From: Candidatus Sericytochromatia bacterium
GTDB lineage: Bacteria > Cyanobacteriota > Sericytochromatia > UBA7694 > JACMQJ01
Length of the DNA: 64,000 bases
NCBI GenBank assembly: GCA_046328075.1
Contig: JAXLXG010000016.1
Span: forward strand, 55,196 to 119,195
Direction of reading: 5' to 3'
Part shown: piece after piece, positions 33,464-62,578 of the stretch
How positions within the stretch are numbered: the first letter of the stretch is position 1
How the letters are laid out: every line of letters begins with the position of its first letter
Made by a program: the position numbers and the translations under genes
Notes under the pieces: generated by a model
Databases searched by the model: none
What the model was told of the DNA's origin: nothing
What the model saw: the letters and a program-made list of their open reading frames with translations, nothing else

Positions 33464-34087
33464 ATGAATATTTTTGGGACAAATAATGTATCTACAATTA
33501 ATCCTTATTCCCCACAATCAGCTCCTAATGCAGCTTATACAAATAAAAGCGTTCAACCTACAAATGTATATAGTAGTGACTCAGTAAGTATATTAGCTAG
33601 AAGTGCAGCACAAACAGCTATCTTTGTTTCAGGTGGAGTTACAGGTTATAAATATCATGATGAAATAGCAGGTGTTGGTAAAAACTTTGGTAATGCAATA
33701 AAGTCGGGTTCAGCTAATGAAATAATGGATTCAGTTACCAATGGAACCAAAACAATGTTCACTACAACAGCAAGTGCAGCTGGAATTGGTGCCTTAATAT
33801 CAGGTGGAACATCTTTAATTTCAAATACATTATCTTTTGCTCAAGGAAGAACAGATACAGCAAATGCTACAGCAAATGTTGCAACAGATACAATAAAAGG
33901 TGCTGTATCTGGTATTGGTGGTGCACTTGGTGGTGGTCTTACACATATAGGTATGGGTATAATAGGTTTTACAGGAACACCCCTAGTAGTTGCAAGTGTT
34001 ATAGGTGGTGCAGTTGGAGCGGCTTTACTTGGTAGCACAATAAATACAGATTCTTTAAGATATAAAATCAGAAATGCAATAGGCTAA
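33464..34087 (+). CDS. Gly/Ala/Thr-rich protein with C-terminal glycine-zipper hydrophobic segment (bacteriocin- or pore-former-like candidate)
   Basis: 207 aa, Cys-free. N-terminal polar region, then GxxxG-rich tracts (GAVSGIGGALGGGLTHIGMGIIGFTG...VIGGAVGAALLGS). Preceded by an AGGAGG RBS. Confidence 0.4.
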   Translation: MNIFGTNNVSTINPYSPQSAPNAAYTNKSVQPTNVYSSDSVSILARSAAQTAIFVSGGVTGYKYHDEIAGVGKNFGNAIKSGSANEIMDSVTNGTKTMFTTTASAAGIGALISGGTSLISNTLSFAQGRTDTANATANVATDTIKGAVSGIGGALGGGLTHIGMGIIGFTGTPLVVASVIGGAVGAALLGSTINTDSLRYKIRNAIG

Positions 34088-34195: not shown

Positions 34196-36256
34196 TTATA
34201 AAGAATCGATTATTTTTTCCTTTATTTGAGTAATTTTTTCATTTTCTATTCTATTACTACCTGTAAATTCGACACCTAGTTTTTCACTCAAAATTAAGGT
34301 AATTAAAGTTTCTAATGCATTTGTTCCATTTTGTTTGTCACCACCCATTGAAACAACGGTTTTAGGGACTATATCAATTCCCCCCTCTTTAATTGCATCA
34401 GTGAATTTTGACATAACCTCTTGTAGTATTTGGAATTTAGCTCCACCATAAGCATTAACTTGTTCTTGCATAGCAATAGCTTTACCTATACCAACTTTAG
34501 CTTCTTTTTCAGCTTCAGCTTCAGCTATTTTTTTAATTTTTTCAGCTTCACCATCAGCTAGTATCTTTATTTTTTGAGAATCACCATCAGCAAGCATTTT
34601 TACCTTTTCAGATTCGGCTTTTGCTAATACTTTAATCTTTTCAGCTTCTTGTAAGGCTTTTCTAAAATCAGCTTTACCTTTATTTTCTTGTACTTCAATA
34701 TCAATAGATGAAGATGTTAAGTCTTTTTGTTGTTCTGCCCTTGCCTCTGATTCTCTTAAAACTTTCTCTTTTTCTGCAGCTCTTTGTTGTACCTCATAAG
34801 TTTTTACTTTTTCTTCTGCAATTTGTCTTTCTCTTAATTGAGTTAAAATAGTTTCAATTCTTGTATCATTAGAACCACCATTTGGAGTTCCTATTAAAAC
34901 TTCTTCTAAATCAAGATTATATCTTCTAAATTTTTCAGACATTTCTTGATTAGCTCTATCTTGAATCTCGTTTCTATTATGTATAAGCTCAATTAAAGTC
35001 TTTGTTTGACCAATATTTTTAAAATATGAACTAATCATTGGGTCAAGGGATTGTTCTACTAATTTTTTTATATCACCAAATCTTTGTATTACCAAAGGAG
35101 CCTTTTTATAATCTATATGTATAACTATACTTAGGGGTAATAAAGGTTCAAAAGCATCTTTTGTAATTAAAGAAACTTCTTTTAAATTCTCATCATATTT
35201 ATGTAAACCAATTTGAGAGCTAATCCATTTTAAAATAATATTAGTGGTTGGAACTTGAATTATCTTACCTGCATAGGTATTAAATGCGTATTTACCAGGC
35301 ATTAATGGTTCTTTCCAAACACCACTATAACCCTTTTCTACAAGCTCACCATGTGTATAATCATCACCACTTGTATCTGTACCTTTTTCTCCTGTATAAG
35401 AAACAACAACCCCAACATTTCCAACTTCTATAATTGTTTTTGGTATTAATTCTATTGTAGCAAAAAGCCTATTTATATAATATGTCCCGTCGACTAAAAC
35501 TTGGTGTTGACGTCCTCTATAACCTCCTGCTTTTAAAAATTTCTCTATATCTTGGAAATTATTATGATAAGTATTAATCTCATTCGGATTTTCACCAAGA
35601 ACAGGAGCTATTATATGTCCACTCGGTAATGATTTACCATCATGAACAGTAACAACACCAAGCATATCTTCTATACCTTTTATTATTACAGGTGTAAATG
35701 AATTTCTATCAAGTAATTTCTTGTGCATTTCTTTTATTGAAGCATCTTCTTCTTTATTATAATCAAGTGGTAAATAATAAATTTGATTAAAAGTAAAAAC
35801 AATAAACTGAGCAAGATTAATGGCATAAGTTCCCTCTCTTAAAATCTCTCTTTGAGGTCCTTTTTGCCCTCCATTTTCTAAAAAAGCTCTAACATTTTGA
35901 AATTTATTAGAATCTATAATAGTTTTTCCTAATGTTTGTACAGGTTCAAGAGAAGCTCCATCACGAGCAAATACGTATCCTATTTGACCTTGAGGGATAG
36001 TAACTAGTGGTAGTTTATGAATTCTATAAACAAAATGAGATCTAAAGTGTATACCACCTCTTAATAATTCAGGTTGAAATCCAGATTCATCATTTAAAGC
36101 TATTAATTTTTCATGTAAAGCACCTTTTGTTGACCATAATTTTTCTACAACGCCTACTTTATTATTAGGAACAATTCTTAAGCCTAAAATAAGTATTAAA
36201 ATAACTAGAATAAAAAATAAAATTGATAATATTATCAAAATTGTAAATGGAGTCAT
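34196..36256 (-). CDS. SPFH/Band-7 (flotillin-like) membrane protein with long EA-rich coiled-coil C-terminus
   Basis: N-terminal TM helix, SPFH domain, then KxxAEAEAEKEA-type repeats as in flotillins. 686 aa. Confidence 0.75.
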   Translation of the reverse strand: MTPFTILIILSILFFILVILILILGLRIVPNNKVGVVEKLWSTKGALHEKLIALNDESGFQPELLRGGIHFRSHFVYRIHKLPLVTIPQGQIGYVFARDGASLEPVQTLGKTIIDSNKFQNVRAFLENGGQKGPQREILREGTYAINLAQFIVFTFNQIYYLPLDYNKEEDASIKEMHKKLLDRNSFTPVIIKGIEDMLGVVTVHDGKSLPSGHIIAPVLGENPNEINTYHNNFQDIEKFLKAGGYRGRQHQVLVDGTYYINRLFATIELIPKTIIEVGNVGVVVSYTGEKGTDTSGDDYTHGELVEKGYSGVWKEPLMPGKYAFNTYAGKIIQVPTTNIILKWISSQIGLHKYDENLKEVSLITKDAFEPLLPLSIVIHIDYKKAPLVIQRFGDIKKLVEQSLDPMISSYFKNIGQTKTLIELIHNRNEIQDRANQEMSEKFRRYNLDLEEVLIGTPNGGSNDTRIETILTQLRERQIAEEKVKTYEVQQRAAEKEKVLRESEARAEQQKDLTSSSIDIEVQENKGKADFRKALQEAEKIKVLAKAESEKVKMLADGDSQKIKILADGEAEKIKKIAEAEAEKEAKVGIGKAIAMQEQVNAYGGAKFQILQEVMSKFTDAIKEGGIDIVPKTVVSMGGDKQNGTNALETLITLILSEKLGVEFTGSNRIENEKITQIKEKIIDSL

Positions 36257-36401
36257 AATCTTTTTCCTTTAAAAATATACATAAAAAATAGAATCAATAA
36301 AATTGATTAAAAAATATTTAGAGACTGTGTTTTATTTATCGCAGGTATTCATGGAATAAAAGATTATACTCAAACAATAAGAGCATTTTTTTCATAAATT
36401 T

Positions 36402-36491
36402 TCCTTTCGCCTACGAGGTTAGCTGACGGACTCAGGTTAGGAAATTACCTTACTCCTCTTTAGAAGATTCGCCCCAAATTTTGGTTCCCCC
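36402..36491 (-). promoter_or_regulatory. GC-rich structured element within a long 5' leader of the flotillin gene (candidate cis-regulatory RNA; function unknown)
   Basis: About 90 nt at roughly 50% GC inside AT-rich intergenic DNA (cctttcgcctacgaggttagctgacggactcaggttagg...gattcgccccaaattttggttcccccg). An extended -10 (TGTATAAT) lies on the minus strand at about 36533-36540. A 19-codon uORF (MKKMLLLFEYNLLFHEYLR) lies immediately downstream on the minus strand. Confidence 0.25.
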
Positions 36492-36574
36492 GTTTTTCAT
36501 ATAGAAAACTCGGCAAATTTTATATAGTTATATTATACAATATCCTGTTAATTTTATCTATATTTTTTTATAAG

Positions 36575-40177: not shown

Positions 40178-42595
40178 TTAATATAAGCTAGACATAAAAT
40201 CTAAAACAGTTTCATTATCTATTATTAGTTTTTTATCTTTATCAATCTTTCTATTAAAAAATGAGTTTCTTTTTAAAGAGTCTGTAAATGATTTAACACC
40301 TGCAATACTAGATTTACTATCATTAGGAAATTTATCAAAATAATCAAGCATTTTATCATAAGTATCATGTGTTATTTTATTTTCAATTTTTTCTTTACCA
40401 CTAATTTTATCTGTTTCTTTTAAAAATGTTCTGATTAAATCAAATGTATCAGAACGTGTAGGATTATCAATTCTTATTTTTTTATCAAAACGTCCTTCTC
40501 TTATAGTCGCTTCGTCTAGATATTCTTTATAATTTGTTGCTGCAACTAAAATTAAGTTTGGAATATCTCTAGATTTAATAATAAGATCTAGAATTGTTGC
40601 TCTTAAGTTTAAATTACTACTTTTTGCTGCAATTCCATCAAACTCATCAAAGAAGAGAACACAACCACCTTTGCTTAAACGTGCTATTTTAAACGCAGAA
40701 TCAAATATATCTGATAGTTTTTTAGAATCTTCAGAATAAAAATGACTTGCTATATCTTTTCCTATTACTTTAATAAAATCTAAATTAAATTCCCCAGCAA
40801 TACACTGTGCTATAAAGCTTTTACCATTCCCAGGAGGTCCTTCAAGTAAAATACCTCTTTCAGAATTTATATTATAATATTTGAGTTCATCTGCTCTTAT
40901 TACTGATATAATAGAATTTCTTATTTCTTTTTTTATTGAATGATAACCAATAACAGAACTGAAATTATATCTATTTTTTTTAGTAGAAATATATTCAAAC
41001 TTATCTTTATTAGTAGAAATAACTTTTTCTTTAAAAATTTCCAGAGCAATATCAAATATATCTTTACCCGATGATTTTTTATCTAATTCATAAAGTCTTG
41101 TTTTAATAGTATTTGAAATATCTTTAATATCTCTACCAGATAAACCTTCTGTTTTATCTAAAAATATGTATTTATTAATTCTAGTCCAATTATTTTGTTT
41201 TAGATAAGGAATATATAACTCAAATAATTTTTCTCTTTCATTTCTTTTGGGTAAAGGTATAGTTTGCATATCAAAACGACTAACAACAGCACTATCTAAA
41301 ACTTCAGGAATATTTGTCGCACCTATAATGAAAATTCGTTGGAAATTATTATCAACACCGTCTACTTGAGCTATAAACTCATTTGTAATATCTTTTGCAA
41401 AACTATCTGTTAGTGCATTATCACGTTTTGGAAAAACAGCATCCATTTCATCAATAAAAATAATGGTAGGTTCTAAAGTTCTTGCTTTTTCAAAAATCTT
41501 TTTAACCTCTGCTCCAGAATGTCCTACATATAATTGCTTTAAGTCTGATAATTTAAGAGGCATAAAGTTAAAACCTCCCATATTTGCGACTGCTTTTGCA
41601 ATCATTGTTTTACCCGTACCTGGTGAACCTGTTAAAATAATTCCTTTTTTTGCTTCAGGTTTATTTAATATAAAATTATTAAACTCTTTCTTTATTCTGT
41701 CTTTAACATATTCATCTAAAATCAAATCTTTATCAAAATCTATTTTTTCTTCAATTGGTGTATGAAAATACTTATTAAAAACAGGATAAATTTCAGAAAA
41801 AGGTGCATCTTCAGCTTTATTTAATTCTGTAGCAAAAACATGACAAGCATCTTTTAATAAATAGCTATTTGTTTTAAAAGTTGTTGCTAAACTCTCAAGC
41901 TTTTCAAATGGTATTGATAAATTTGTATTTAGATATAAGAATCTATACATAGAATCAAAATATTCATCTATTCTAGCCCCTGGGATAGTTATAAAGTTAT
42001 CTCCTTGAGTATCAAAATAATAATTATCTAATAACTCAAAACTTTTTAAGCTAATAACAACATATAAATCTTTTACCTGATTATTTATTAAACGATTTAT
42101 AAACCTTATTATTTCTAAATTATGCATATGATAATTAAATAAATCAGACATCCATTCAAAACCTTCAATATATAAAAACTTTTTACCTTCTTGTACAGAA
42201 AAAAACTTTTCTATCTGATAAAGCCTCTCTATTAAATTTGAAGATAAAGATTTTTTACCTCTTTTTTGAAATTCATTATGTCTTAGAATATCTAATTCAA
42301 AATTTCCTGAGCTTTGACTATTATCAGTTAAGATATTTTCTTCTGGATTAAAAAATTTTTCTAATGCATTATAGGTTTTTTTATTAAAACAGCTAAGATT
42401 TAAATTTATGTCAAAGTATAATGAAATATCACATTTATATTCACGCCTATAAAAATAGTATATAGAATCTTTTAGAGGTAAAGTGCCATAGTAAAAATCA
42501 TTATAAAAGACATCATTTATATTTGAACCACCTAAAAAAACAGTTTTATTTGTTTTATTTAGGGCTTTTTTTATACTTTCTGCAATTCTAAACAT
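40178..42595 (-). CDS. Tandem AAA+ ATPase (two classical AAA domains) with a roughly 300-aa N-terminal domain of unknown function
   Basis: Walker A GSPGTGKT and GPPGNGKS. Walker B IIFIDEMD and VLFFDEFD. Second-region-of-homology residues present. 805 aa. Confidence 0.8.
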   Translation of the reverse strand: MFRIAESIKKALNKTNKTVFLGGSNINDVFYNDFYYGTLPLKDSIYYFYRREYKCDISLYFDINLNLSCFNKKTYNALEKFFNPEENILTDNSQSSGNFELDILRHNEFQKRGKKSLSSNLIERLYQIEKFFSVQEGKKFLYIEGFEWMSDLFNYHMHNLEIIRFINRLINNQVKDLYVVISLKSFELLDNYYFDTQGDNFITIPGARIDEYFDSMYRFLYLNTNLSIPFEKLESLATTFKTNSYLLKDACHVFATELNKAEDAPFSEIYPVFNKYFHTPIEEKIDFDKDLILDEYVKDRIKKEFNNFILNKPEAKKGIILTGSPGTGKTMIAKAVANMGGFNFMPLKLSDLKQLYVGHSGAEVKKIFEKARTLEPTIIFIDEMDAVFPKRDNALTDSFAKDITNEFIAQVDGVDNNFQRIFIIGATNIPEVLDSAVVSRFDMQTIPLPKRNEREKLFELYIPYLKQNNWTRINKYIFLDKTEGLSGRDIKDISNTIKTRLYELDKKSSGKDIFDIALEIFKEKVISTNKDKFEYISTKKNRYNFSSVIGYHSIKKEIRNSIISVIRADELKYYNINSERGILLEGPPGNGKSFIAQCIAGEFNLDFIKVIGKDIASHFYSEDSKKLSDIFDSAFKIARLSKGGCVLFFDEFDGIAAKSSNLNLRATILDLIIKSRDIPNLILVAATNYKEYLDEATIREGRFDKKIRIDNPTRSDTFDLIRTFLKETDKISGKEKIENKITHDTYDKMLDYFDKFPNDSKSSIAGVKSFTDSLKRNSFFNRKIDKDKKLIIDNETVLDFMSSLY

Positions 42596-42597
42596 AT

Positions 42598-43308
42598 TTA
42601 ATTATGAATTTGTCTATCTGAATAATCTCTAGGTAAATTTAAATCTTGAATAATATCTCTACATTTTGTAAGTCTATCTTTAAGATCAGAATGTTTGGCT
42701 AATTCATTAATATCATTTTTGACTTTATCAAGATGCCTAGACATTTCACTTTTTTCTTGTCTTAATTCATCCAATTTTTTCTGTTTATTAATAATATCAT
42801 CTTTTAAGTTATCAATATTTGTATTTTCTAGATCTTTAATATCTTTTGATAGCTTATCATCTTTTTCTTTTAGCTCTATTACTTCTTTCTTTAATTTTGA
42901 TATTCTATTAAACTTAGCTTGGTTAATTTCAATAACACTTTGAATACTCTGAATCATGTCTAGTGACTTATCGATTTTAGAGTCAAAATCGATATTAAGC
43001 CCCTTAAATTCATCATAAAATTGATTATTAATATAATTAATAGTATCTATACTTATTTCGCTTCCTAAAGAATATTTTTTATCTTTTAATATTTCCATTA
43101 AAAATTTATCGCTTAGTGGATATAAACCTAAAAGGAATTGTGTTATTTGTTCTTGTTCATTTTCTGTACAATTATTAAATGCTAAAAAGAAATCACGTAT
43201 GTTTCTTTTATAATAAAAAAAGTTTTCAAAAAAGTTATCGATATTATTTTCCAAGATATCTGTTTGATAACCCTTTTTTAATAAGTTTATGAATTGATTT
43301 ATTTCCAT
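42598..43308 (-). CDS. Coiled-coil protein, translationally coupled to the downstream double AAA+ ATPase
   Basis: 236 aa. The C-terminal half is heptad-rich (KLKKEVIELKEKDDKLSKDIKDLEN...). Its stop lies 3 nt before the ATPase start. Confidence 0.4.
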   Translation of the reverse strand: MEINQFINLLKKGYQTDILENNIDNFFENFFYYKRNIRDFFLAFNNCTENEQEQITQFLLGLYPLSDKFLMEILKDKKYSLGSEISIDTINYINNQFYDEFKGLNIDFDSKIDKSLDMIQSIQSVIEINQAKFNRISKLKKEVIELKEKDDKLSKDIKDLENTNIDNLKDDIINKQKKLDELRQEKSEMSRHLDKVKNDINELAKHSDLKDRLTKCRDIIQDLNLPRDYSDRQIHN

Positions 43309-43895: not shown

Positions 43896-44332
43896 TTTAT
43901 ATTAAATATATTTATTAAATAATAACTTAAAAGTAAAATATATAATAAATTTCTTTAAAACCTTATAATAAAATTAAAATTTATTCTTTATAGTTTAAGA
44001 GTAAAAGTATGTTTTAAAAAATTAAGTTGAAGGGAAATTATCATTTTCAATTTAAACCTAGAACTCTTGTCTTACAATAAAAAAGAAGCTTTAGTTGTTT
44101 TTTAGTCATCAATTACTTAGTTATAAACTAATATAAGCTACGAATAATGTTTAAGCTTAAGACATAGAAAAATAATAAAGATTTAGTATATTGTAATAAC
44201 TTTTTTTTACTTTAAATTACAATAAAAGTTTGTTAATTCTTTATTATATTGCTCAACTAAATTACCTAAAGATAGTATTATTGTAAGTAATTGTTATAAA
44301 AGTTGTTAATTTTACTTCGGAGGAATTTTAAA

Positions 44333-44812
44333 ATGGGATTCGCAAACGTAGCTCAATCATCAGGTGGCTATCAACGTTCAGTTGCAGAATTTAATCTCTT
44401 GAAAAAAGAGAATCAAAACCAAATGCGTGTTAATAATTCACTTGCAAATGCTCGTGCTCAAGAGCTTGATGGAAGATCACAAGAAGCAGTAGAAACAACA
44501 AGAAAATATGTTGATACTTATTTACAAATGAAAGCTGCAGATAAAGCATATGATGCAGCTAAGTGGGGCTTTATTGGTTCACTAGTTAACTTAGCTGGTA
44601 AGTTGGCATCAAATATTGCTGGTGATGGTGGTGGATGGCAAATTGCAACAGACCTTGTAGGAGATAGTTTTGCTGCATTAGGTGCTTATTTTGCAATGAG
44701 AGGTGCAGGAGATGAGCTTAAACTATTAAAACAACAATTTGGTGATATGTCTGAAGCAACTAAAGAAGATCAAAATTATGTTAGAGCATTAGATGGAAAT
44801 CCTGCTGTATAA
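44333..44812 (+). CDS. Island protein A (159 aa), Cys-free Ala/Gly-rich hypothetical
   Basis: ATG at 44333 preceded by GGAGGA. The track ORF starts earlier at a TTG. No Cys and no signal peptide. Higher GC than the flanks. Confidence 0.5.
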   Translation: MGFANVAQSSGGYQRSVAEFNLLKKENQNQMRVNNSLANARAQELDGRSQEAVETTRKYVDTYLQMKAADKAYDAAKWGFIGSLVNLAGKLASNIAGDGGGWQIATDLVGDSFAALGAYFAMRGAGDELKLLKQQFGDMSEATKEDQNYVRALDGNPAV

Positions 44813-44841
44813 TTTTTTTTCATAATTATTAGGAGAAGCAT

Positions 44842-45492
44842 ATGGGAAGTATTCAAGCATTAAGATCTTGGGCTTTATCTTCTAGAGCAAATGAAGATAC
44901 AGATGTACAGATATCAGGTTTTTTAGGTAATGTTAATAAAGCTCTAGGTAAACAAATTGTAAGTATTTTAGATCAATTACAAGGTGTAGTTGGTGAAAGA
45001 ACTAAAGCTTATAATAACCTAGTTTCAAGTATTAACAGAACAATAGATGGTAAAGGTGGTATCGCAGAAAAAGCAATTCTTGGTAGTTTTGCTGGTATGA
45101 AAACTATATTTATGATACCTAAAATTGTTATGGGAAAATTTACAGCTTCAGATCTTATTAATTTTGCAACATCTGCTATAAGTAATGGTCTTAAAAAAGC
45201 AGAAATTGATGCTTCTATTGGAGGTGCTATATATGATTATGAAAAAATGGCAAGTCAATTAGGATATGCAACATTTCGTGTAACAAGTGGATCAATAAAT
45301 TCAGATGCAAGTAGTGAGCTTGGTCCTGGTATGCTAGAACAGTCAGGATTAATTACAGGGGCATCAAGATTTTTAGATATGAGGGATGCATTAATGCCTA
45401 GATATAATTACCAACAAACAAATCTAGCATCACCTGGTTCTTATGCTTATCATAGTAAAAAAGGTTTTGTTGGAACCTTAAGAAGAAATTAA
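44842..45492 (+). CDS. Island protein B (216 aa), Cys-free hypothetical
   Basis: AGGAGA RBS. No Cys and no signal peptide. Gly/Ser/Ala/Thr-rich. Confidence 0.5.
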   Translation: MGSIQALRSWALSSRANEDTDVQISGFLGNVNKALGKQIVSILDQLQGVVGERTKAYNNLVSSINRTIDGKGGIAEKAILGSFAGMKTIFMIPKIVMGKFTASDLINFATSAISNGLKKAEIDASIGGAIYDYEKMASQLGYATFRVTSGSINSDASSELGPGMLEQSGLITGASRFLDMRDALMPRYNYQQTNLASPGSYAYHSKKGFVGTLRRN

Positions 45493-45514
45493 TTTTTAGA
45501 GGTAATTTAACTAT

Positions 45515-48500
45515 ATGAATCTATCAACTTCTGGAATGGTAGCGAATTTTAGACAAGATATTGTAGGTCGTCAACTTTCAGTATCTGCTAATTCTGGGGC
45601 AAGTATTTATTATCCTACATCATCTGCTATAAAATCAAATCATGAAACTGATAAACAGGCAGAAGAAAATGCTACATGGTTTTTTGAGTATAAAGCACTT
45701 TTGAATTCAAAATTAACAACTTTAACAACTGCTTTAACAAGTGCTTATACTGCAGATTTAGACGCAAGTATGACTAGTCAAGGAGCTCCTGATAATACAG
45801 CACCAAATAATCAATGATATTAGGTGGTAAAAAATGCTATGCAGGTGAAACCGGAGAAATGGTAGATTTATATCCCGCTCCTGCTGGAGATGGGACTAAA
45901 GGAACTCATTACTAGACCCAGGTGCTGGTAGAACTACAGTTGCATACTTCCGTTCTTTTGGATTTACATTTGCACCTACTGGTGCAACAATGACTGATGT
46001 ACTTGGTACAGGGACACTACTGTGATCCAGTAAGTTTCTAAACTTGATGCTCGGTCACAAATTCTAATATTACAAATTATACTACAGGACTTCTCTTAGG
46101 TACTTCAAGGAACGCACCTGTTTCACAAACAAGTATTCAGGGACAACAACATTCTTAAGTGGCGCGGTAGTTCTGCAGGTAATACTACTAATTCTTGATA
46201 GACTTTATGTTGATCTTGCTGATATCCGCATCAATGATGTGCCTAATAATAAAATAGTGAACCTCAATATTTACCTTCTCCTCCCTAACCCTCCAAATAC
46301 ACCTAATCCTAATTGCTAAGACAATAGAGCAGTGAGCCACTTATCAACAGTATTAGGCAGAAAAAACATTGGTAATAATTTAGAGTTAACTCTTTATAAA
46401 TTTTTCTCCTAAACCTGAGAATTATGATCAATAAGATTTGGTTTAATGGATGTATTGTTGGAACATCTTCATTGGCTTTAGTGGTCAAAGTACAAGTATA
46501 TCTTAAGATATACTTCTTGAACACTCTGGTAATCCTGTTCAGAACTCTTATATAGAGATGAAACAAGAAAAGACTGTTAGCATTTTTATCATTATAAAGT
46601 TAATTTCATATTTTTTATAATTATGAGGGAAAGTAATATATGTCAATAGGCTTTATAAAGTGCTGGTACATCAAGCAGAACTGTAGATATTTATAGTGGT
46701 GGCAGGAGAAATAGAAGTTAGACATGTTACAAAAATTATTAAATGAGATATGATAAGTCAAAACAGATCTTGATAGATTAATGATTCTGATCAGACTTTT
46801 AAAGGCACATCTGATATAACTTCAAGGCAACAGAAATTACTCAATTCAACTATAATAAGAGTCTGTTAATGGTTGGTCAGAAAATTGGTATGCTGAATAT
46901 ATCTAGAGCAGTTCTTGCTCTTAGAGCTGATCTTTTACAAAAAAAATTTTAGTCTTCTAACACAATAGAGTATTAGAAAAGTGCTGTGGATGTGGAATCC
47001 TGATAGACAATCTGTATTTGCTCCTTACTCTAATAGAACATTTAAAGATGATATTAATAATACTGATATATTAAATAATAAAATGCGTATAATAAATATT
47101 ATGATGGTTGTTAAAGAGTTAACTTCATCTGGACCTCCAAATCCTATACCACCAGGTTATACTCCGTTATGGAATACATGGCAATACAAAACTATCTTAG
47201 TAATGTTGATGGAACAGGTTTCTCTGGTAGAACTGGTTTAACTAGTTATACAACCTATGCTGCAAATAGTGTTTATCATTCATATAGTGAATATACAAGT
47301 GCAATAGCTGTTCCAACTCCCAAGTGAGCAAAGGCTGATATGCAGAGATTGGAGATGTTAAACGGAAATACTCCTGCAATATCATTTCCCTTATAGTTCA
47401 AGGTAATCTATCCAAATGAGTAATGATAATCCTGGCTCTGTGGATATGCTTCTAGTAATGTAACCAAAAGACAAGCTCAAAGAAATAAAGCACTTCAAGC
47501 AATAAATGATGCATTAGCAACACTTGGTGACATCTGCACCAACAACAGAGCCAGAGTTATCTGAATACAATGAAATAAGGATGATGCAGTTGAAGCTGGT
47601 TTACAAGTTATGGATAACTTATGGAAAGGTTCTATGGCACTGGTAGTAAATTCAAGTGGTAGTAATGATACAGATTCAGATGATTATAGAGATTTTCTTG
47701 ATGAAACTAATGTACAAAGTAATCTATAAACCTATATACAATCCCAGTTGCAGGTTAAAACATAATTCAAACATCAACAGCACTGAAATTTTTCACCTAC
47801 TACAATACCTTTGTTCTAGGTGATTATCCTAGCATTGAGTCATTAATGCGAAGCATATGCAAATCCTAATAGTATTACCATGGTAGTGGAACTTTTGACT
47901 ATCAAAATATCAAGGTTTAGATGGAACAGGTTTTAAAGTTAAAAAGTGCCTGAGTTTGGAATGAATTGAATTATATAATTTGTTACAAATGTATTCCTAC
48001 GATGTAAAATGCAATGAACAACAACAGATGGTTTAACTCACCTGCAATAAATCAGATAGTTCACGTCTCATTATTAGGTATACAATACAACTAATATCTA
48101 TAAAGGTAATTATTATGATGCTAAACCAATGGCTTCCTCATTTGGTATTTATGGATGTCATTATTATAGCATATTATTTTCAGTAATGGCAGATGCAGAT
48201 AAAATTACCCTAGGAAGTTCAGTGTAAACACGAGGCTTTGGGTTTTGCACATACACACAGGTATACAAAGTGATGAGTCTACATCTCAAATAGTTATTCC
48301 ATTAACACCTCCACCGCTAGTATTGATATCGATTTTTTTTTTTTTTTAAATTTTCAGCAATTGGTGGGCATATACTATGGTCAGGCATCTGCTATTTCCA
48401 TTCTCTTCTCTGAGGTTAGTTATAGTTGAAGTTCTTGGGAAGTGTAAGATTACCAACTATAGGTTTAAGTGCTTCTGTTGCTGTGGTATTGGTGAATTAT

Positions 48501-50656
48501 TGGTTTCCTATAGCTTGATTATTTGCATTATAAATGTAGGTTTTTCATATGATATATTAGCTCAAGCTTTTAAAAATACTTACAAAGTTAAAAGCATTTT
48601 TGTAGTTGAAACGATAATGATAAACTCTTATGCTACATCAGAAGTGGTATAGCAATGGATAGTTATGCAGCAAGAGCAGTATCACTTCATATTAGTTTTC
48701 TTGAAACAGTTAATATAACTTTGATATACCTGTTCTTGTTATACAAATTCATTCCTTTAGGAGATTTAATGGAAACATTTATGACAAATGGTTACCTTCT
48801 CTGTTTCTATTTTAACAAGTATACTTGGTTTAGGAATGTTAGATAACTAATGATGACAGACATATGTAAATGATCAAGAACTTAGAGAAAGACTATTTTA
48901 AGTATAAACATGCAGTTCAAGAGGCAGAATCTAGAGAAACAGAAACAGGTGCATTTTTGCAACAAATGCTTTCTTAGGATATTGAAATGTCAGATATGTC
49001 ATCTGAATACCTGGATAAGGAACTCAACAAAATGAAGAAATCAATAAATATGGACTTAGCAAAGGCATTTACATGGCAGGACCAAAATAATTCAAAACTC
49101 TTTAGCAACTGCTTCTGCAGTATCAAATAAAAGTAGAAAATAATTTGCTGGTTAACTGGTGCATTAAAAGCTGTATTTGATGGTCAAAAAGATAAAAAGA
49201 TTACTAAATATTATGTATGACTTAATGTATAGAGATCAGCTTGGTAAGGTGGTGCAAAAGGTGATATTGGTAATGCTGTTGGACAATTAGATATAGTTAG
49301 TGGTTTCACTGGTGGAAAGTGGAACTATGGAGCAGACTAGAATCCTTCTTAAGAAAATCATCATTACTTCTGAAGCATATGATTATATAGAAAATGATCA
49401 TAAACCTTATGAGGAGATAGTGACTTTAACTATAAATCAGGGGTATTTTAAGTGGTGTTCTAGTTGGTGGTATATTCCAAGCTTCTTTGAAGCTAATACT
49501 GACTTTATATTAGAAGGTATGGCAAATACAAGAAGATTTGCAAAAGTGATTGGGATGACATATTATAACATTATGCTCTAGTAACCATCTTTATATAATA
49601 ATCAAGATGCAGAAACAGGTTTGGACACAAAATTATAAACTAGGTAGAGGATATTTACAATATAATAATAGACAAATTCTAGTATAGTTAGTCATATCCA
49701 AGATGGTATTCTTGTATAAAAAGGTTGGGATGATGCAGATTTTATTTAAATTATGATATAAATGAGGTTTATACTGCTACAAGAAAGAGTTAAGTTTGTA
49801 ATCTAACTTTTATAAGGTTGACAGTGGTAAGGAGACTTAACTGAAATCAAATAACTGGTTCAAATCAGTTACCAAATATTAATAGTGATTTAGGAGCAAC
49901 TAGACAAACCGCAACAAAGTAAAAAGAATATGTAGGTTCAGTTAAAATACTTGAAAATGTGATGGTGCTAATGCTGTAAAAATCATGAGACCTTTACTGC
50001 TGGTATATATAAGGAGATAATAAAAGTATTTTGATAGGCAGACTAGCAATTCATATAGTTTAGCTTTTAAAACTACTGCTGATGGAAATCAATATAATCT
50101 ATTTGGTTCTCAAACTTTAAACCCACAATGGAATTCTTAAAAATATCTAATAGATAAAAATAAAACAGATGAAGCTTTAATTGAACATAATAAGAAGTGA
50201 GAATGATGACTTATAAAAGCAAAATTAAGTGGAATGGGTGCTGCTACAAGAAAAGATGTTCAAATTTTGGAAATTACTGTATGAAATTGACCTAAACAGA
50301 AGTTAATACATACTATGACATTTACACGTAAGATCAGATGGACAGAAATCTCTCAATAACAGTTAAAAAGAATAAAAAGGATATGTTTTGAAACAGGTTT
50401 AATGAGTAGTATATTCTTAAGTGGTCAAACATATCATCAAAGTGGTGGTGGTATAACTTCTTCAATTGAGATAAGATATGACCCAACTCAAGGTAAATCT
50501 AGTTTACAAACAGATACTAGAGAGAACTTTAACCAAAGTAATGTTAACTTTGACCCATACAATACTCCATTCTTAACAAGAAGTAGAGGACAAGCAACAA
50601 CATATTTAAATAGTTACTTTGCTTATAAAAAACGCTCTACTAATAATAAGACCTAA
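45515..50656 (+). pseudogene. Decayed tandem paralog of the 1035-aa island protein. The N-terminal 100 codons and C-terminal 84 codons are intact; the roughly 4.6-kb middle is disrupted
   Basis: The 45515-45817 product (MNLSTSGMVANFRQDIVGRQLS...YKALLNSKLTTLTTALTSAYTA) aligns with the N-terminus of the 50683 protein (MTFSNVNVFRNTVVGLRASE...YQALMQNRLNRLKQDLTNAYKA). The 50402-50656 product (GGGITSSIEIRYDPTQGKSS) aligns with its C-terminus (GGSVNATMDIQYDPTSNKFI). Between them lies coding-like + strand sequence with in-frame TAG/TGA/TAA codons and frame changes. The longest ORF there is 93 aa. Confidence 0.5.
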
Positions 50657-50682
50657 TTAAATTTTAAGAGGTAAGATAATAA

Positions 50683-53600
50683 ATGACTTTTTCTAATGTT
50701 AATGTTTTCAGAAATACTGTTGTTGGTTTAAGAGCCAGTGAACCAGGAGCAACAGCTGATAAAATTGTAAGAGGTGGAGCATTTGCCCCTGATACAAAAG
50801 AAGCTGTTTCAATGATGCGTTCGGATCTTGATAATCAATGGGAAAATAGTTATATAGTAAAATATCAAGCTTTAATGCAAAATAGATTAAATAGATTAAA
50901 GCAGGATTTAACAAATGCTTATAAAGCTATATTGGAGGTATCCTCTGTCCAACAGATAAGAGAAAATGGTTTAACTACTGCAAATTCTGCTGTTACTGAT
51001 GTATATGGCAAAATGATCAATAATGCAGGTGAAGCATTTAAAAGGTTAAAGTACTATAATAACGAAAGTGAATTTACTGGGGATGATGCTAATGATGGTA
51101 GTTCTTCTGATGGTACACCTAGTTATTTATTAGATATGAATTTAAAACAATTAGGTAGTTCAGGCGATGGGACAGGAACTAATGCAAGTAGAGCAGGAAA
51201 AATAGAGATGAGGAAACTCTATGTTACAGGTCCAGCTTTACAAGTTAGCAATTCTATGAAAGTTGCTCTAAGAACTGAAGAAGTACCACCTGAATATAAA
51301 AACCCTCAAATACCTCTTATTGGGGCTCTTTTACCTGGTGAAAAAGGCTTTACTCCTGCACAAAAAATAGCAGAGTATAGTGCAGATGTTAAATCTGGTG
51401 GATTCTGGACAACTTTAAATTATCTTTATAATTTTGCTCCAAGAGAAATGAAATATAGCTACCCTACAGCATATAGTACAAACTCAGAAGAAGCTGGTTC
51501 TAGACAAATTGCTGCTGGAACAGCAAATCAAAGACAAGCAACCATATTTAATGGTGAAGTAACTGATGCTAGAGATGTTTTTGCTCCATCTGGTGGTTTT
51601 CTTAGTTTTGGTGATTATAAGGCAGGGGGGCAATTCGAAGATAGTTCAATACCTAGCTATACTTCAAATAATGGAGATAAACCACCTACTGGTGCTAGAA
51701 TAAAATGGCAAGAAACTGATGCTAATAGTGGATATCAAACAGAAAGAAGCCCAATTATAATTCAAAGAGATAATAATCAAAATACTTATAATAGCAGTGT
51801 TCTATCAAGAATATATTCGCCTCTTGATTCAAGGGTAATAACTAGAAGAGAGTCAGATAATGATAATAACTTCGATTTAAATAAGATTAGACTTGCTGAT
51901 GCCACAATAAAAACATTTACTGATTATCCTAATGGTAATCCTAATAAACTTACTTATTACGGAACAGAAGATTCTTTTGGTTCTACAGTAGGTATGGATG
52001 ATCGTATTAAGTGGGAATACAATCATGATGGAGTTGGAGCAGCAGATTTTGACCAAAATGGTATTGATGGTGGCGATGTCCATGTAGCTAAAAGTATATT
52101 TTTAAACCATTATACAGTACAAACCCAAGAGATTGAACTTAATTCAAGCTCTTTATCTTCTGGTAAAGTCAAAGCATTAGACTATGATAGTGTAACTAAT
52201 GACAATGATTATCAACAAATGACTTTGAGATCAGCAGGTTTAGACGGATCAATTGAGCACGTCTGGAATGATGAAGATAAAGATAAAAGAGTTGACAATA
52301 ACAAAGATGAAAAAGTTATGGTTGGTGGATCTAGCAAAATATCTAAAAATTTTGATGGTAAATTTGTTAGTGATCTCTATAAACTCAATAGTTTCAATGG
52401 TCAGAATATAGCAACAGAAAGTGCTAATGTTAATATAACTACAAAAAATGATTCTGATAAAGTTGTAATTGCAGAATATGAAGGATTTAAAAGAGCTCAA
52501 ACCATGAATGCAGGTCTAGCTGAAGATTTATTCTCATCAGTAAATAATACTCCTAGAACTGAACAAGATGCAAAAAGATTAGCTAAAAAACTGGAAACAG
52601 AAATTAATGCGACTACAATGGTTGATACAGATTGGCATTATGCAGAACATAAAACTAATAGTAGTGTTATGTTTAGATTTATTGATAAAGTATCATTTAA
52701 AACACCATCAGGTGGCTCAGATAGTGTTAATGTTCTTTACCGTTCTGATATGATTGAGGGTGGTGCTGGTGGAAATTTTAATAATGTAACTGTAGGTTTT
52801 AGAAAAACATTTAAGTTAGAACCTAGAGACTTCCAAAAAGCTGTATATGCTCCACCAACTAATGCAGATATATATATTAATACTCCTAGCTATGTTGATC
52901 AAGATGTTTGGGTTGATGCAATAACAACAAACTCAAGTACTGGAACTGGAGATGGTTTAGGTGGTGCCAGTGATGCTGGGGGCTTAGTTGTAAATGGAAA
53001 AATTGTAACTGGAACAAATATGGGTGGGGGTAGATTTAGATATAATTTAAAGGGTTTCTTACAATCTGGAGATAATGTTATTGGTGCCCAAGTTAAATTT
53101 GATATTGCTGGAACAAATGATAGTTTCAAGTTAGAACCAGTTACAGGCTTAAACACAACTGCTATAAATAACTGGATAAATGGTAGAGTTTCTACAGATA
53201 GACTTCAAAACGGTGATTCAGATCCGACATTAACTAAGCTAAATGATCCTACTTTACCTAATAACTTATCATCATGGCAAACAAAAATGATGGTCAGAAA
53301 AGCTGGTGACTTTACTATTGCAGATATTATTCCTAATATAGATACAAATGGTGATGGTATTCCTGATCCTGTAGATGCGAATGGCACTGGTGGACCTGAT
53401 ATAGCAGAATTTAATGCAGCTTTTGCAAATCCTAAAAAACCAACAGGAGCAGAGCTTAATGCAGCAAACCCTCTAATGCTAGATTATTTATCAAGATTTC
53501 AAAAAAAGTACAAAGAAGAACTTGACTCATTAGCTTCTGTTGATACAGTTACTAAAGTTAAAGATAACAATACATTTGCTAATATGTTAACCAAATCTTT

Positions 53601-53790
53601 GAATAAAAAAGACTATCAAGATATATTTAATTTAGGATTATTAAATACTGAGCTTGGAAAGACAATGGTTATTAAAGCTCAAGTTAGTGCTCCAACTGGT
53701 GGTTCAGTTAATGCAACAATGGATATACAATATGATCCAACTAGTAATAAATTTATTTTAGTACAAAATAAATTTGATGCTATGGGTTAA
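50683..53790 (+). CDS. Large Cys-free Thr/Asn/Gly/Asp-rich structural-type protein (1035 aa); candidate S-layer, surface-array or capsid-like subunit; no signal peptide
   Basis: Zero cysteines in 1035 aa. No hydrophobic N-terminus. Gly/Asp clusters resemble Ca-binding loops (DTNGDGIPDPVDANGTGGPD, GGAGGNFNN, GDGLGGASDAGG). AGAGG RBS. Elevated GC. Confidence 0.7.
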   Translation: MTFSNVNVFRNTVVGLRASEPGATADKIVRGGAFAPDTKEAVSMMRSDLDNQWENSYIVKYQALMQNRLNRLKQDLTNAYKAILEVSSVQQIRENGLTTANSAVTDVYGKMINNAGEAFKRLKYYNNESEFTGDDANDGSSSDGTPSYLLDMNLKQLGSSGDGTGTNASRAGKIEMRKLYVTGPALQVSNSMKVALRTEEVPPEYKNPQIPLIGALLPGEKGFTPAQKIAEYSADVKSGGFWTTLNYLYNFAPREMKYSYPTAYSTNSEEAGSRQIAAGTANQRQATIFNGEVTDARDVFAPSGGFLSFGDYKAGGQFEDSSIPSYTSNNGDKPPTGARIKWQETDANSGYQTERSPIIIQRDNNQNTYNSSVLSRIYSPLDSRVITRRESDNDNNFDLNKIRLADATIKTFTDYPNGNPNKLTYYGTEDSFGSTVGMDDRIKWEYNHDGVGAADFDQNGIDGGDVHVAKSIFLNHYTVQTQEIELNSSSLSSGKVKALDYDSVTNDNDYQQMTLRSAGLDGSIEHVWNDEDKDKRVDNNKDEKVMVGGSSKISKNFDGKFVSDLYKLNSFNGQNIATESANVNITTKNDSDKVVIAEYEGFKRAQTMNAGLAEDLFSSVNNTPRTEQDAKRLAKKLETEINATTMVDTDWHYAEHKTNSSVMFRFIDKVSFKTPSGGSDSVNVLYRSDMIEGGAGGNFNNVTVGFRKTFKLEPRDFQKAVYAPPTNADIYINTPSYVDQDVWVDAITTNSSTGTGDGLGGASDAGGLVVNGKIVTGTNMGGGRFRYNLKGFLQSGDNVIGAQVKFDIAGTNDSFKLEPVTGLNTTAINNWINGRVSTDRLQNGDSDPTLTKLNDPTLPNNLSSWQTKMMVRKAGDFTIADIIPNIDTNGDGIPDPVDANGTGGPDIAEFNAAFANPKKPTGAELNAANPLMLDYLSRFQKKYKEELDSLASVDTVTKVKDNNTFANMLTKSLNKKDYQDIFNLGLLNTELGKTMVIKAQVSAPTGGSVNATMDIQYDPTSNKFILVQNKFDAMG

Positions 53791-53829
53791 TTATGATTAA
53801 AATATTTTTATAAAGGAAGGTAATTATAT

Positions 53830-54384
53830 ATGGGCATAGAATTAGTAAAAAATCAAAACTTAGCTCAATATGCAAGTTTATTAGCTAACCCTCAGTTTTT
53901 AAATGCTATAAAATCAGCTACAAAGAATGATAAAACAGGCAAATACAGTTCTTTACTTGAAAATCTAGAAAAACTTAGCAGTTCTTTAGAGGAAAGTAAT
54001 TCTGATACAAAAACAACTGAAACGGATTCAGGTGAAAGTTTAAGCTTACTAAAATCTGTTATGCCTCAATCTAGTGTAGGTTCAACAAATAAATCAGGTC
54101 AACAAAGTTTAGCTATGGATGATTCTATTAGAGAGGCAATAAATCAACTTATAGCAAATGCAGAGATGATGGAAGATATGTTAGATCTTGAGGTTACACC
54201 ATCAGGTGATGAGTTTACAAATCTTTTAGCAAAATTCCGTGAAATAATTACTAAACTTGATCAAGAAACCAGAAAAATACACGATGAAGTTAAGGAAAAG
54301 AAAACTAAAGAAGAATTTAAACTTACTCCATCAAGTAATTCAAAAAGTGGTTTTAATGAATCAATAACTTTATTAGCTAAGTAA
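53830..54384 (+). CDS. Acidic Cys-free helical protein (184 aa); chaperone- or scaffold-like candidate
   Basis: AAGGAAGG RBS. Ser/Glu/Leu-rich and predicted helical. Its stop abuts the TPR gene start (TAAATG). Confidence 0.5.
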   Translation: MGIELVKNQNLAQYASLLANPQFLNAIKSATKNDKTGKYSSLLENLEKLSSSLEESNSDTKTTETDSGESLSLLKSVMPQSSVGSTNKSGQQSLAMDDSIREAINQLIANAEMMEDMLDLEVTPSGDEFTNLLAKFREIITKLDQETRKIHDEVKEKKTKEEFKLTPSSNSKSGFNESITLLAK

Positions 54385-55284
54385 ATGTCAAAAACTAAAA
54401 TAGAAGAACTTATAAATAAAGGTACTAAGTATATAAAAGATAAAGAATATGACAAGGCCGAAGCAACTTTTAATGAAATAATAAAAATTGATTCAACCTT
54501 ATCTTTACCTTTTATAAATCTTGGAATGGTTAGACTCTTAAATCAACAAGTAGATTCTGCAATAGACTTATTTAATAAGGCTTTAGAACTTGATCCTAGA
54601 AGCTTAGAATCTTACCAGAATTTGGGAAGTTGTTATTTTTATAAAGAAGATATTGAAAAAGCTGAATCTATGTATATTAAAGCTTTACAGATAGATCCTT
54701 CAAATTTTAATACATATCATAATTTAGCTTTTTTATATATTAATTCTCAACAATGGAATAAAGCTAAAAATCCTTTAGAAAAAATAATTCAAATTGATGA
54801 GAATAATATTCAAGCATCATTTTATTTAGCAATGATTTATTTAAATTCTAAAGAATACTATCCAGCAATAGCGAACTTTTTATATACTCTTAGTATTAAT
54901 CCTAATTATAGTAGTGCTAGAATTGGATTATCTGATTGTTATTATAAAATAGGTCGTTATAAATCTGCTTTATCTGAGTTAAATAAGATAATTGAAGCAA
55001 TTCCTGATTTTGTTACACCTTATGTTAAATCAGCTTTGATACATATAGAAATAGGTGAAAAAGATAATGCAATACCTCTCCTTGAAAAAGCTGTTGAATT
55101 AAATGAAAATAATCTTGATATATCAGAAATATTAGCAGTTATATATGAGGAAAAGGGTGAGAGGGAAAAAGCTGAACAACTTTATCAACATATTTTAATT
55201 AAAGATTCAGAAAATAAAAGTGCTTATGAAGCTCTAGAAAGAATAAAAGAAGTTTCTGCAAAACTTTCTGAGCAGAATAGTTAA
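54385..55284 (+). CDS. Tetratricopeptide repeat protein
   Basis: About seven 34-aa TPR units (A..YN.G......A...Y..AL..DP). 299 aa. Confidence 0.7.
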   Translation: MSKTKIEELINKGTKYIKDKEYDKAEATFNEIIKIDSTLSLPFINLGMVRLLNQQVDSAIDLFNKALELDPRSLESYQNLGSCYFYKEDIEKAESMYIKALQIDPSNFNTYHNLAFLYINSQQWNKAKNPLEKIIQIDENNIQASFYLAMIYLNSKEYYPAIANFLYTLSINPNYSSARIGLSDCYYKIGRYKSALSELNKIIEAIPDFVTPYVKSALIHIEIGEKDNAIPLLEKAVELNENNLDISEILAVIYEEKGEREKAEQLYQHILIKDSENKSAYEALERIKEVSAKLSEQNS

Positions 55285-55401
55285 GCATTGTTGTTTATTT
55301 ATTAAATGATTGTAAATTGTTTATTGTTATATGTATCTAAAAGAATTTATTAAATTATAATAGTTTTAGATCCTATCAGATTTTATTTGGAGATTTTTTT
55401 A

Positions 55402-56076
55402 ATGGGAAGTTTGTCTATAAATAACCTTATAGTAAGTATTGGTGTTGCTTTTGATGCTCAACTTAAAGCAGCAGATAATCTATTTTTCTCAGCAGCAGTT
55501 GATTTTACTGATCCTACTAGACCAATGTTTGGTGGTGCTCTTGGTACAGCATCTGGAGCTTCAACAACTTTATATAATGCTGCTCAACCAGGTGTTGGTT
55601 ATTCTAGTGCCAATAATGCTATTTCAGGAGATCCTGTTACAGTTAGACAAACAGTAACAGCTGAGGGTCCTAGATACCAAGTAACAGATGGCAATGGTAG
55701 AGAAATAAAAATAGAAGCTCAATCAACTGCAGGTCCATATAGAAATATTCCAAGATATATGGTTAAATCTGATGGTATAGTTTATGATGTGTTATCACCT
55801 ACCACTACAGCTGGTACAGGACAATTTGGTATTTGTGACAATACTAAAGCAAATGGTTCACCTGGTTTAACTTCATTTGCTCCTGGTGCTAATGGTATAA
55901 CAATTGCAGAATTTGCAAGACCTGTTGGAAGAATCACATTTAAAGCAAAAGAAGGTGCAACTCTTGCACGTGCACAAGATGACTTACAAAGAGTTGGAAG
56001 TATAGTTCAATTATTAACTAGATTATTAGAATCAGTTCAAGATGAATCTAAAGGTTTTAGTAGTTTAATAAGATAA
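55402..56076 (+). CDS. Island protein (224 aa), Gly/Thr/Ala-rich hypothetical
   Basis: ATG at 55402 with an upstream GGAGA. The track ORF starts at a TTG at 55387. One Cys. No signal peptide. Confidence 0.5.
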   Translation: MGSLSINNLIVSIGVAFDAQLKAADNLFFSAAVDFTDPTRPMFGGALGTASGASTTLYNAAQPGVGYSSANNAISGDPVTVRQTVTAEGPRYQVTDGNGREIKIEAQSTAGPYRNIPRYMVKSDGIVYDVLSPTTTAGTGQFGICDNTKANGSPGLTSFAPGANGITIAEFARPVGRITFKAKEGATLARAQDDLQRVGSIVQLLTRLLESVQDESKGFSSLIR

Positions 56077-56146
56077 CATTTTAATAACATAAAAAGAGCT
56101 TTAAGTAAAACTTAAAGCTCTTTTTATTATTTTTACTAAACAATAT

Positions 56147-62188: not shown

Positions 62189-62578
62189 CTATATAAACTT
62201 TTTATTAGAAGCAAAATCTGAATCACTAGGGTCTTTAAAATCTATTGCCCATATATTAGATGAACCAATCATTGCACTTTGCTGTGTATATGGATTAGTC
62301 ACGGATTTATTATACTTTTTACCATTTGCTTCAGTTGCTAATTCGGATAAATTTAAAGGATAAACTTGCCAATCTACATTATAGGTTTCAAGCATAATTT
62401 GTAATGTTCTAATATTTGTCACTAAAGATGCTTCTAATGCTCTTTTTTTAGCTGAAACAACATAATTTGAAACACCAATACCAACAAGAATCCCGATTAT
62501 TACAACAGCAGTCATTAACTCTATAAGAGTCATACCACTATTATGCTTTTTGGCTATGTACTTCATATTCCTCATCAA
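62189..62578 (-). CDS. Prepilin-type N-terminal cleavage/methylation-domain protein (type IV pilin or pseudopilin); true start probably an internal Met
   Basis: KKHNSGMTLIELMTAVVIIGILVGI is the class III signal/N-methylation motif (G|MTLIE). Overlaps the rsfS 3' end in another frame. Confidence 0.7.
   Translation of the reverse strand: MMRNMKYIAKKHNSGMTLIELMTAVVIIGILVGIGVSNYVVSAKKRALEASLVTNIRTLQIMLETYNVDWQVYPLNLSELATEANGKKYNKSVTNPYTQQSAMIGSSNIWAIDFKDPSDSDFASNKKFI

Follow-up and report, generated by a model that had tools for sequence, protein, structure and literature searches.

The axial proteins of flagella (FlgK, FlgL, FliD, flagellin and the rod and hook proteins), with their chaperones FliS and FlgN, are leaderless and free of cysteine. 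The S-layer proteins of the RTX type, Caulobacter RsaA and Campylobacter fetus SapA, are acidic proteins of about 1000 amino acids (aa) that also lack cysteine and a leader. In injectisome translocator and tip operons, a tetratricopeptide repeat (TPR) protein such as LcrH/SycD or IpgC accompanies leaderless helical proteins. Type IV pilus minor-pilin/PilY1 operons combine several small proteins with one or two exceeding 1000 aa. Here, we describe a module that resembles each of these systems in part. It comprises genes A to H and occupies positions 44333 to 56076 of a 64,000-nucleotide stretch of Candidatus Sericytochromatia bacterium DNA (contig JAXLXG010000016.1), hereafter the window. As far as our tests reach, this operon lies outside every characterised system. 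Two family assignments hold; TPR for protein G and a distant galactose-binding-like domain for protein E.

The likenesses differ from system to system. As with flagellar axial proteins, the module has paralogs of very unequal length with conserved termini and variable middles. Protein H has helices around a β-domain, and the operon also encodes small helical and TPR proteins that are putative chaperones. Protein E shares its size, acidity and composition with RsaA and SapA, as well as occasional Asp/Gly calcium-loop-like motifs. However, the module is a multi-protein operon and not a single lattice protein. Like the injectisome operons, it pairs a TPR protein with leaderless helical proteins (A and B) that have moderately hydrophobic centres. 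However, G is twice as long as its counterparts and scores 73.5 bits against LcrH/SycD model TIGR02552, for which the cutoff is 104.8. Similarly, A and B lack hairpins of transmembrane grade (maximum 19-residue hydropathy 1.2–1.65) and injectisome genes are missing.

The type IV pilus operons are alike in their run of gene sizes. In addition, pilD-pilMNOPQ lies ~2–3 kb 3' of the module in six related loci of high guanine plus cytosine (GC) content (L003, L013–L016 and one more). This run, ~2–9 kb 3' of G, follows sucD and a methyltransferase gene and consists of pilD (A24 peptidase), pilM, pilN, pilO, a 241-aa gene and the pilQ secretin. However, the linkage is not class-wide and is absent in the low-GC clade. 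Furthermore, the module proteins have neither a prepilin leader nor a hydrophobic α1 N-terminus. Over their first 25 residues, A–F average −0.5 to +0.5 in hydropathy and H averages +0.8 (1.3 for the longer open reading frame, ORF), and H has no G/FxxxE cleavage motif. A separate prepilin-like gene is found in the window at 62189–62578 (−). Finally, residues ~735–820 of E resemble the galactose-binding-like modules of GH2/GH78 glycosidases and lectins, but only that one domain matches.

Distribution, family assignment and composition

The gene order of the module recurs in ~20 loci with a GC content of 27–52%. All belong to Sericytochromatia, Blackallbacteria or Cyanobacteriota metagenome-assembled genomes (MAGs). 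Loci of the low-GC clade run A-B-C-D-E-F-G-H, and those of the high-GC clade run A-B-C-C2-D-E-F-G, with H standing alone among unrelated metabolic genes. Flanking genes differ between the clades. A word-indexed search of 5.8 billion proteins returned 37 relatives of E, and a genome scan found 15 loci, all from the same three groups of MAGs. Among 1.84 billion representatives, 64 proteins matched the HMMER profile of E at E ≤ 1e-3, and for 24 the E-value was ≤ 1e-30. Less significant matches are C- and D-type paralogs, aligned through profile positions 32–158 (N-terminal) and 864–960 (C-terminal). A few unrelated proteins match at 727–832 only. The module is a chromosomal operon that is inherited vertically and confined to the class Sericytochromatia. 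We have high confidence in this descriptive part of our account.

An ORF listing confirmed A, B, E, F, G and H as consecutive + strand genes (Table 1). Intergenic gaps within the module are 0–39 nucleotides (nt), except for 117 nt 5' of H. The F stop codon abuts the G start codon and F lies directly 5' of G in every locus. The non-coding block 5' of A is near-invariant in five low-GC loci, though their coding DNA differs by ~20–25% or more. Rfam gave no match for this block and RNAalifold no consensus structure, and an Rfam scan of the whole window identified no riboswitch for the module. No T1SS (type I secretion system), phage or flagellar hallmark gene sits beside the module, here or in the ~20 related loci.

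Table 1. Features of the module and its borders (window positions).
Feature	Positions	Strand	Description
Conserved non-coding block 5' of A (promoter and/or 5' leader)	44200–44332	+	GGAGG ribosome-binding site at its end
Gene A	44333–44812	+	159 aa; helical, Ala/Gly-rich, centre Gly-rich and moderately hydrophobic; no Cys, no leader
Gene B	44842–45492	+	216 aa; conserved N-terminus MGSIQALRS..; RDALMPR motif; no Cys
Gene C	45515–46600 (end approximate)	+	~330 aa in relatives; first 100 codons open here (45515–45817), remainder frameshifted
Gene D	46640–50656	+	ATG at 46640 (MSIGFI..), then ~100 or more small indels; last 84 codons open
Gene E	50683–53790	+	1035 aa; acidic, no Cys, multi-domain; N-helix and C-terminal β-domain in common with C and D
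Galactose-binding-like β-sandwich in E (GH2_N / Bac_rhamnosid_N type; predicted)	52885–53142	+	E residues ~735–820
Gene F	53830–54384	+	184 aa; acidic, Ser/Leu/Glu/Lys-rich; putative chaperone or adaptor
Gene G	54385–55284	+	299 aa; cytoplasmic multi-repeat TPR protein; Pfam TPR_2
Gene H	55402–56076	+	224 aa; predicted N-helix 3–26, β-domain 29–179, C-helix 184–223
Bidirectional terminator	56089–56127	+	perfect 18-bp-stem hairpin, then T run; closes unit after H

The original prediction, made from the sequence alone, could place none of the proteins in a known family. This holds after searches of Pfam, PHROGs, NCBIfam and PADLOC, which recovered TPR only. For A, B, C, C2, D and F there was nothing significant in Pfam, NCBIfam or PADLOC, including when intact C and D of relatives and the high-GC orthologues were used. 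PHROGs returned nothing significant for A, B, E, F, H, the C fragment of the window or the C-terminal fragment of D. Family profiles of A, B, C/C2, D and H matched no sequence in the PDB; among these and E, the sole match was a weak one between the E profile and GH2_N. Hence, A, with orthologues in 13 loci, has no Pfam, NCBIfam, PHROG, PADLOC or PDB-sequence match, and B has no family or PDB-sequence match. Protein G matches Pfam TPR_2 (E 5.9e-39) and is below the cutoff of all NCBIfam equivalogs, LcrH/SycD, PilW and MamA included.

The module had been singled out for composition, and most of that description stands. Proteins A, B, E and F contain no cysteine, H has one residue and G has two. 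No 19-residue window of any module protein reaches a Kyte–Doolittle mean of 1.8 and no N-terminus is leader-like; the same is true of the orthologues. Enrichment in Thr, Gly, Ala and Asn applies to A, B, the C fragment, E and H (31–38%) but not to F (24%) or G (21%); most other proteins of the window have 16–29%. Proteins D and E carry a net charge of −23 to −86. Sporadic DxDxDG-type calcium-loop-like motifs sit in variable inserts.

The GC content of the module is indeed higher than that of the remaining window (0.319 versus 0.265), but the excess is modest and gene G is at genome level (0.25). The increase resides wholly in codon positions 1 and 2 (GC2 0.39–0.50 versus ~0.30). At position 3, GC is 0.07–0.15, the same as in other genes of the window. 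Hence, there is no signal of transfer. The higher GC is due to amino acid composition, that is Gly/Ala/Thr codon demand, as the original prediction had allowed, and not to foreign codon usage.

Paralogs of the module and protein H

The region between B and E had been taken for a decayed copy of a duplicated protein of ~1000 aa. Our data do not agree. In tblastn searches with intact genes of relatives, positions 45515–50656 resolve into two different genes, C (~330 aa) and D (~1300 aa). Over the relatives D is 1166–1677 aa long (1298–1331 aa in the closest), and both genes are intact where contigs are full length. Two domains are common to C, C2, D and E, a helical one of ~100 aa at the N-terminus (..W/F.FEY+ALLNS/ALMQNRLN..) and a β-domain of ~80 aa at the C-terminus (..N.F...L....Y.DIF.LGL.....SS/PTGGS.Q.S..I.Y.....I.....+..AF). 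Between D and E, the likeness is confined to ~100 N-terminal and ~80–100 C-terminal residues. Alignment of C with E by hhalign supports the C-terminal domain (probability 96%, E 1.2e-9). Using hmmsearch, the C profile matched E at 9–126 (i-E 5.5e-6) and 936–1022 (i-E 3.4e-4), and D representatives match the E profile at both ends. Between close relatives, identity is 76–87% at the termini and 25–60% in the centres. No DNA-level repeat common to D and E was found. Since only the termini are shared, and D and E have no repeat at the DNA level, the comparisons indicate that C, C2, D and E are ancient paralogs with large, faster-evolving cores. They do not indicate a recent duplication or a cassette system.

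An AlphaFold2 model of E (mean predicted local distance difference test, pLDDT, 73; predicted template modelling score 0.76) has a disordered start (residues 1–37, pLDDT <50) and a 52-residue helix (38–89). Several α/β and β-domains follow, then C-terminal helices and a final three-stranded sheet (strands 995–1034). Residues ~735–820 match GH2_N and Bac_rhamnosid_N (PF02837 / PF08531) by profile, fold and intermediate sequences. These lines of support overlap in part; the E profile underlies two of them, and the third is a model built from the same alignment. Together, they indicate that E carries a predicted, distant galactose-binding-like module with a sugar-binding, or lectin-like, character. 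A glycosidase catalytic domain was not detected in E. A Foldseek search of BFVD with E gave 0 matches at E ≤ 0.001 and an exact-sequence look-up of E gave none.

Protein H is the most conserved of the set and is modelled as a helix, a β-domain and a second helix. An identical protein (100%) is recorded in an NCBI Candidatus Sericytochromatia bacterium MAG. By hhalign it is unrelated to C. Near-exact short pieces of H occur in three unrelated proteins, P0138, P0139 and P0140 (locus entry L024 6001–6717). The piece VGRITFKAKEGATLAR is present in P0139 and P0140, and part of the C-terminal helix of H in P0138. All three carry the H C-terminal sequence ESIQDE(S/A)KGFSSLIR. One carrier is the C-terminal end of an RHS protein that is fragmented and also has a cold-shock-protein start. 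The remaining two, each 295 aa long, have a Sec leader and are by eye about half identical to each other. Either the pieces represent a portable H-derived motif or the assemblies are chimeric.

A short element, ATTAA[AG]YR, lies 5' of H in the window (55300–55330) and ~100–120 nt 5' of H in L022 and L023. It also occurs 77–90 nt 5' of A in the high-GC loci L003, L011, L013–16 and L018, giving an overall range of −77 to −119. The recurrence hints at co-regulation of unlinked H with the operon. A sigma-28-like promoter spacing, checked by eye, did not fit.

The broken state of C and D requires separate explanation. The ORF listing contains no long ORF in the ~4.8 kb between the 100-codon C ORF and E. 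With intact C of L001 and L021 as tblastn queries, the matching frame changes from 2 to 3 and back to 2, with in-frame stops present. We took L021, the closest relative (~75% DNA identity), as reference for gap counts in D and E. For D there are 109 gaps in 2.75 kb aligned, of which 96 are not multiples of 3; for E there are 25 in 3.1 kb. Mismatch rates are alike (0.22 in D, 0.21 in E), as is their distribution over orthologue codon positions 1, 2 and 3 (0.19/0.15/0.32 in D, 0.18/0.12/0.36 in E), so that position 3 exceeds position 1 and position 1 exceeds position 2. Old neutral decay would have erased this coding pattern and is unlikely, given ~100 indels. The breakage looks technical or very recent. 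We consider it probable that the frameshifts do not mark an ancient pseudogene but arose as an error of consensus or assembly where the sequence is hypervariable between strains.

Alternatively, C and D may be genuine pseudogenes in this strain (45.8–50.6 kb), with the apparatus being lost here. This is possible but distinctly the less probable case. Stops are numerous in all frames, and the breakage is present in the deposited assembly, where this 100-aa piece of C is annotated as U0354_11170. That annotation was the only match when the fragment was used in a homology search. However, ~96 frame-breaking indels in 2.75 kb have accumulated without a rise in substitutions and with codon-position bias kept, and all six flanking genes of the module are intact. 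Elsewhere in the window, the short-read contig of a 99.3% identical sister strain has only 5 gaps over 13 kb. The same contig ends at window position 50620, exactly at the 3' end of D, suggesting population heterogeneity.

Candidate functions of the module

We tentatively favour the interpretation that the module specifies a lineage-specific, self-assembling and carbohydrate-binding surface structure, built from leaderless subunits with dedicated chaperones. The original prediction of an uncharacterised surface-array or particle-forming system belongs to the same class of explanation. This class is the most plausible, and the galactose-binding-like domain of E lends it some support. The proteins are leaderless, cysteine-free, strongly acidic and rich in Gly, Asn, Thr, Ser and Asp, which would fit a surface structure whose export needs no Sec leader. 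In the paralogs, the ends are conserved and the centres evolve fast, suggesting assembly through the ends. Strain-level hypervariability, together with a lectin-like domain, suggests exposure outside the cell. The invariable pairing of F and G fits dedicated cytoplasmic chaperones or adaptors. Hence, the F/G pair would keep the subunits in the cytoplasm, from which they would leave by a route that needs no Sec leader. The subunits would then co-assemble via their shared terminal domains into a multi-subunit fibre, array or adhesive organelle at the surface. In such a structure, H could be the conserved core or the subunit that repeats, A and B could be small helical components associated with the envelope, and E would supply glycan binding.

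Several observations weigh against this interpretation. Export machinery is linked to the module in no locus. Localisation is deduced from composition and one lectin-like domain only, and such domains also occur in intracellular enzymes. The cores of D and E are large and globular, with many invariant charged and aromatic residues, and would fit enzymes or an intracellular complex too. Structure models cover E and H. Neither the β-domain of H nor the greater part of E has a structural neighbour, and the folds therefore give no hint of function. The breakage of C and D could be genuine in this strain. Finally, H is unlinked in the high-GC clade and the ATTAA[AG]YR motif was defined after seeing the data; when the regions upstream of A and H of one genome were aligned pairwise, 274 of 1000 shuffles equalled or exceeded the score of the real pair, which is not significant.

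A bolder form of the surface-structure interpretation is that the module encodes a kind of surface organelle that has not been described and occurs in Sericytochromatia only. Its leaderless subunits would polymerise via an N-helix/C-β system unrelated to flagella, pili, S-layers and phage tails. Export would take an unrecognised route or a repurposed one, H would form the core polymer and E would sit at the tip as a lectin. We regard this as conceivable but doubtful.

Alternatively, the proteins may be leaderless simply because they are cytoplasmic, forming a cytoskeletal or scaffold structure or an enzyme machine. The absence of signal peptides, transmembrane segments and linked exporters is consistent with this, as are G, a cytoplasmic TPR scaffold, and the large conserved globular cores of D and E with their many invariant polar and aromatic residues. 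Very strong constraint on H is also reminiscent of a housekeeping structural protein. However, cysteine-free, strongly acidic proteins rich in Asn, Gly, Thr, Ser and Asp are typical of extracytoplasmic locations. The galactose-binding-like domain, the sporadic calcium-loop-like motifs, the strain-hypervariable centres of C and D and the assembly break in the sister strain also argue against an intracellular complex, which we consider rather unlikely.

A divergent module of late flagellar or type III secretion system (T3SS) substrates is an improbable alternative. Here, H would be a flagellin- or rod-like axial protein, C, D and E hook-associated or cap-like proteins, and F and G export chaperones, with the T3SS encoded elsewhere. 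In agreement, the proteins are leaderless and cysteine-free with N-termini predicted to be disordered, as in E, and the paralogs have conserved termini and variable centres. The β-domain of H is flanked by N- and C-helices and H is monocistronic in some genomes. The TPR protein and its small acidic partner also resemble T3SS chaperone logic. In addition, the Blackallbacteria contig L023, which has a stand-alone H, encodes a protein of more than 645 aa with a hook/rod D1 domain (PF22692) ~9 kb away (19047–20666). The L023 gene indicates that at least some class members have flagellar-type axial genes. However, module proteins of two clades gave no Pfam or NCBIfam match to Flg_bb_rod, Flg_bbr_C, Flagellin_N/C, FliD, FlgK, FliS or FlgN at thresholds as loose as E ≤ 1 or 0.1. 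In all other phyla, the canonical families of the flagellum can be recognised. Nor was there a sequence or fold match to any flagellar family, including solved rod, hook, junction and filament proteins. Helices, as a D0-type coiled coil would require, are predicted at both ends of H (3–26 and 184–223) in its single-chain model. In contrast, E has an N-helix but a β end and, like C and D, finishes in a β-domain and not in the terminal helix that defines axial proteins. Export-gate genes of a T3SS are found in none of the ~20 loci.

The original prediction compared the module with T1SS-secreted RTX S-layers (RsaA, SapA) and with loci for antigenic variation by tandem paralogs. This idea is largely refuted and now very improbable. 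Size (~1000 aa), acidity, lack of cysteine, Gly/Asp-rich loops and conserved termini are shared features. However, a regular expression search for GGxGxD across 36 E and 13 D orthologues found 0–1 isolated matches per protein and no nonapeptide arrays. No ABC transporter, membrane-fusion or TolC-like gene was seen among the Pfam-labelled genes of five annotated loci (the window flanks, L001, L003, L005 and L021) or the recurrent neighbour clusters elsewhere. No S-layer protein in the PDB was matched. The known C-terminal secretion signals of T1SS substrates are poorly conserved. The C-terminal β-domain of C, D and E differs from these in being conserved. With respect to antigenic variation, the paralogs are ancient and unequal in size, each is intact in relatives across the class and their order is fixed. 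Between D and E there are no DNA homology or recombination tracts, and neither silent nor inverted cassettes.

Phage receptor-binding proteins typically vary at the C-terminus. An origin of the module as a horizontally acquired island, or as a phage-derived tail-fibre, tailocin or particle module, has almost no standing, because its GC3 and codon usage are those of the genome, its GC follows that of the host over a range of 27–52% across the class, both termini of the paralogs are conserved around a variable centre, PHROGs (A–F and H) and BFVD (E ≤ 0.001) gave no structural-family match, no tail or baseplate genes are adjacent, and no tRNA genes, flanking direct repeats, integrase or other mobility genes were found around the module in the window.

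Neighbouring genes and implications

On the 5' side of the module, an 805-aa AAA+ double ATPase gene (40178–42595, −) matches the anti-phage defence ATPase IetA (PADLOC E 3.7e-56). A 236-aa protein encoded after it (42598–43308, −) has weak SMC/MukB-like PADLOC matches. Other loci have neither gene conserved beside the module, and an IetS-like protease was not seen. The two genes probably form a defence pair unrelated to the module. The ATPase was also considered as an EccA-like partner of the module, and rejected because it is not module-adjacent in other loci and matches IetA. Further upstream, a c-di-AMP riboswitch (RF00379; 95.9 bits, E 2e-21; 36394–36525, −) lies just 5' of a gene for a 686-aa SPFH/Band-7 membrane protein (34196–36256, −). 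A 960-aa Wza-like polysaccharide export protein with Poly_export and seven SLBB repeats (2736–5618, −) indicates a capacity for capsule or exopolysaccharide export in the genome.

Three orphans were also noted. The C-terminal part of a 266-aa protein (25269–26069, +) is 31% identical (E 2.5e-16) to the product of a 329-aa gene of L001 and L005. In those loci the 329-aa gene, with an Hpt phosphotransfer gene, is directly 5' of the module; its homologue in the window genome is 18 kb away from the module. A 1773-aa ORF (12425–17746, +) is another large orphan with 0.1% cysteine and no Pfam family, and the profiles made for A, B, C, E and H do not match it. A 207-aa orphan (33464–34087, +) is 46% Thr, Gly, Ala and Asn, and its GC2 of 0.53 exceeds that of every other gene in the window. 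It belongs to no Pfam family and, despite its module-like composition, has no detectable homology to the module.

Sericytochromatia are an uncultured, non-photosynthetic sister lineage of the oxygenic cyanobacteria. Our literature searches returned no description of their cell biology and, combined with flagella and motility, no description of such a system. The module comprises eight to nine genes across ~12 kb, amounting to more than 4000 codons. It is conserved class-wide and has essentially no relatives in 1.84 billion representatives. Its structural neighbours are confined to the TPR protein and one lectin-like domain. The C/D region also suggests that, where a MAG is clean apart from one dense run of frameshifts, this run can mark a surface locus that is hypervariable between strains and not a pseudogene. 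If the module builds a surface appendage or adhesin, it would represent a new assembly principle. It would then be a lineage marker relevant to attachment, movement or interaction with other cells.

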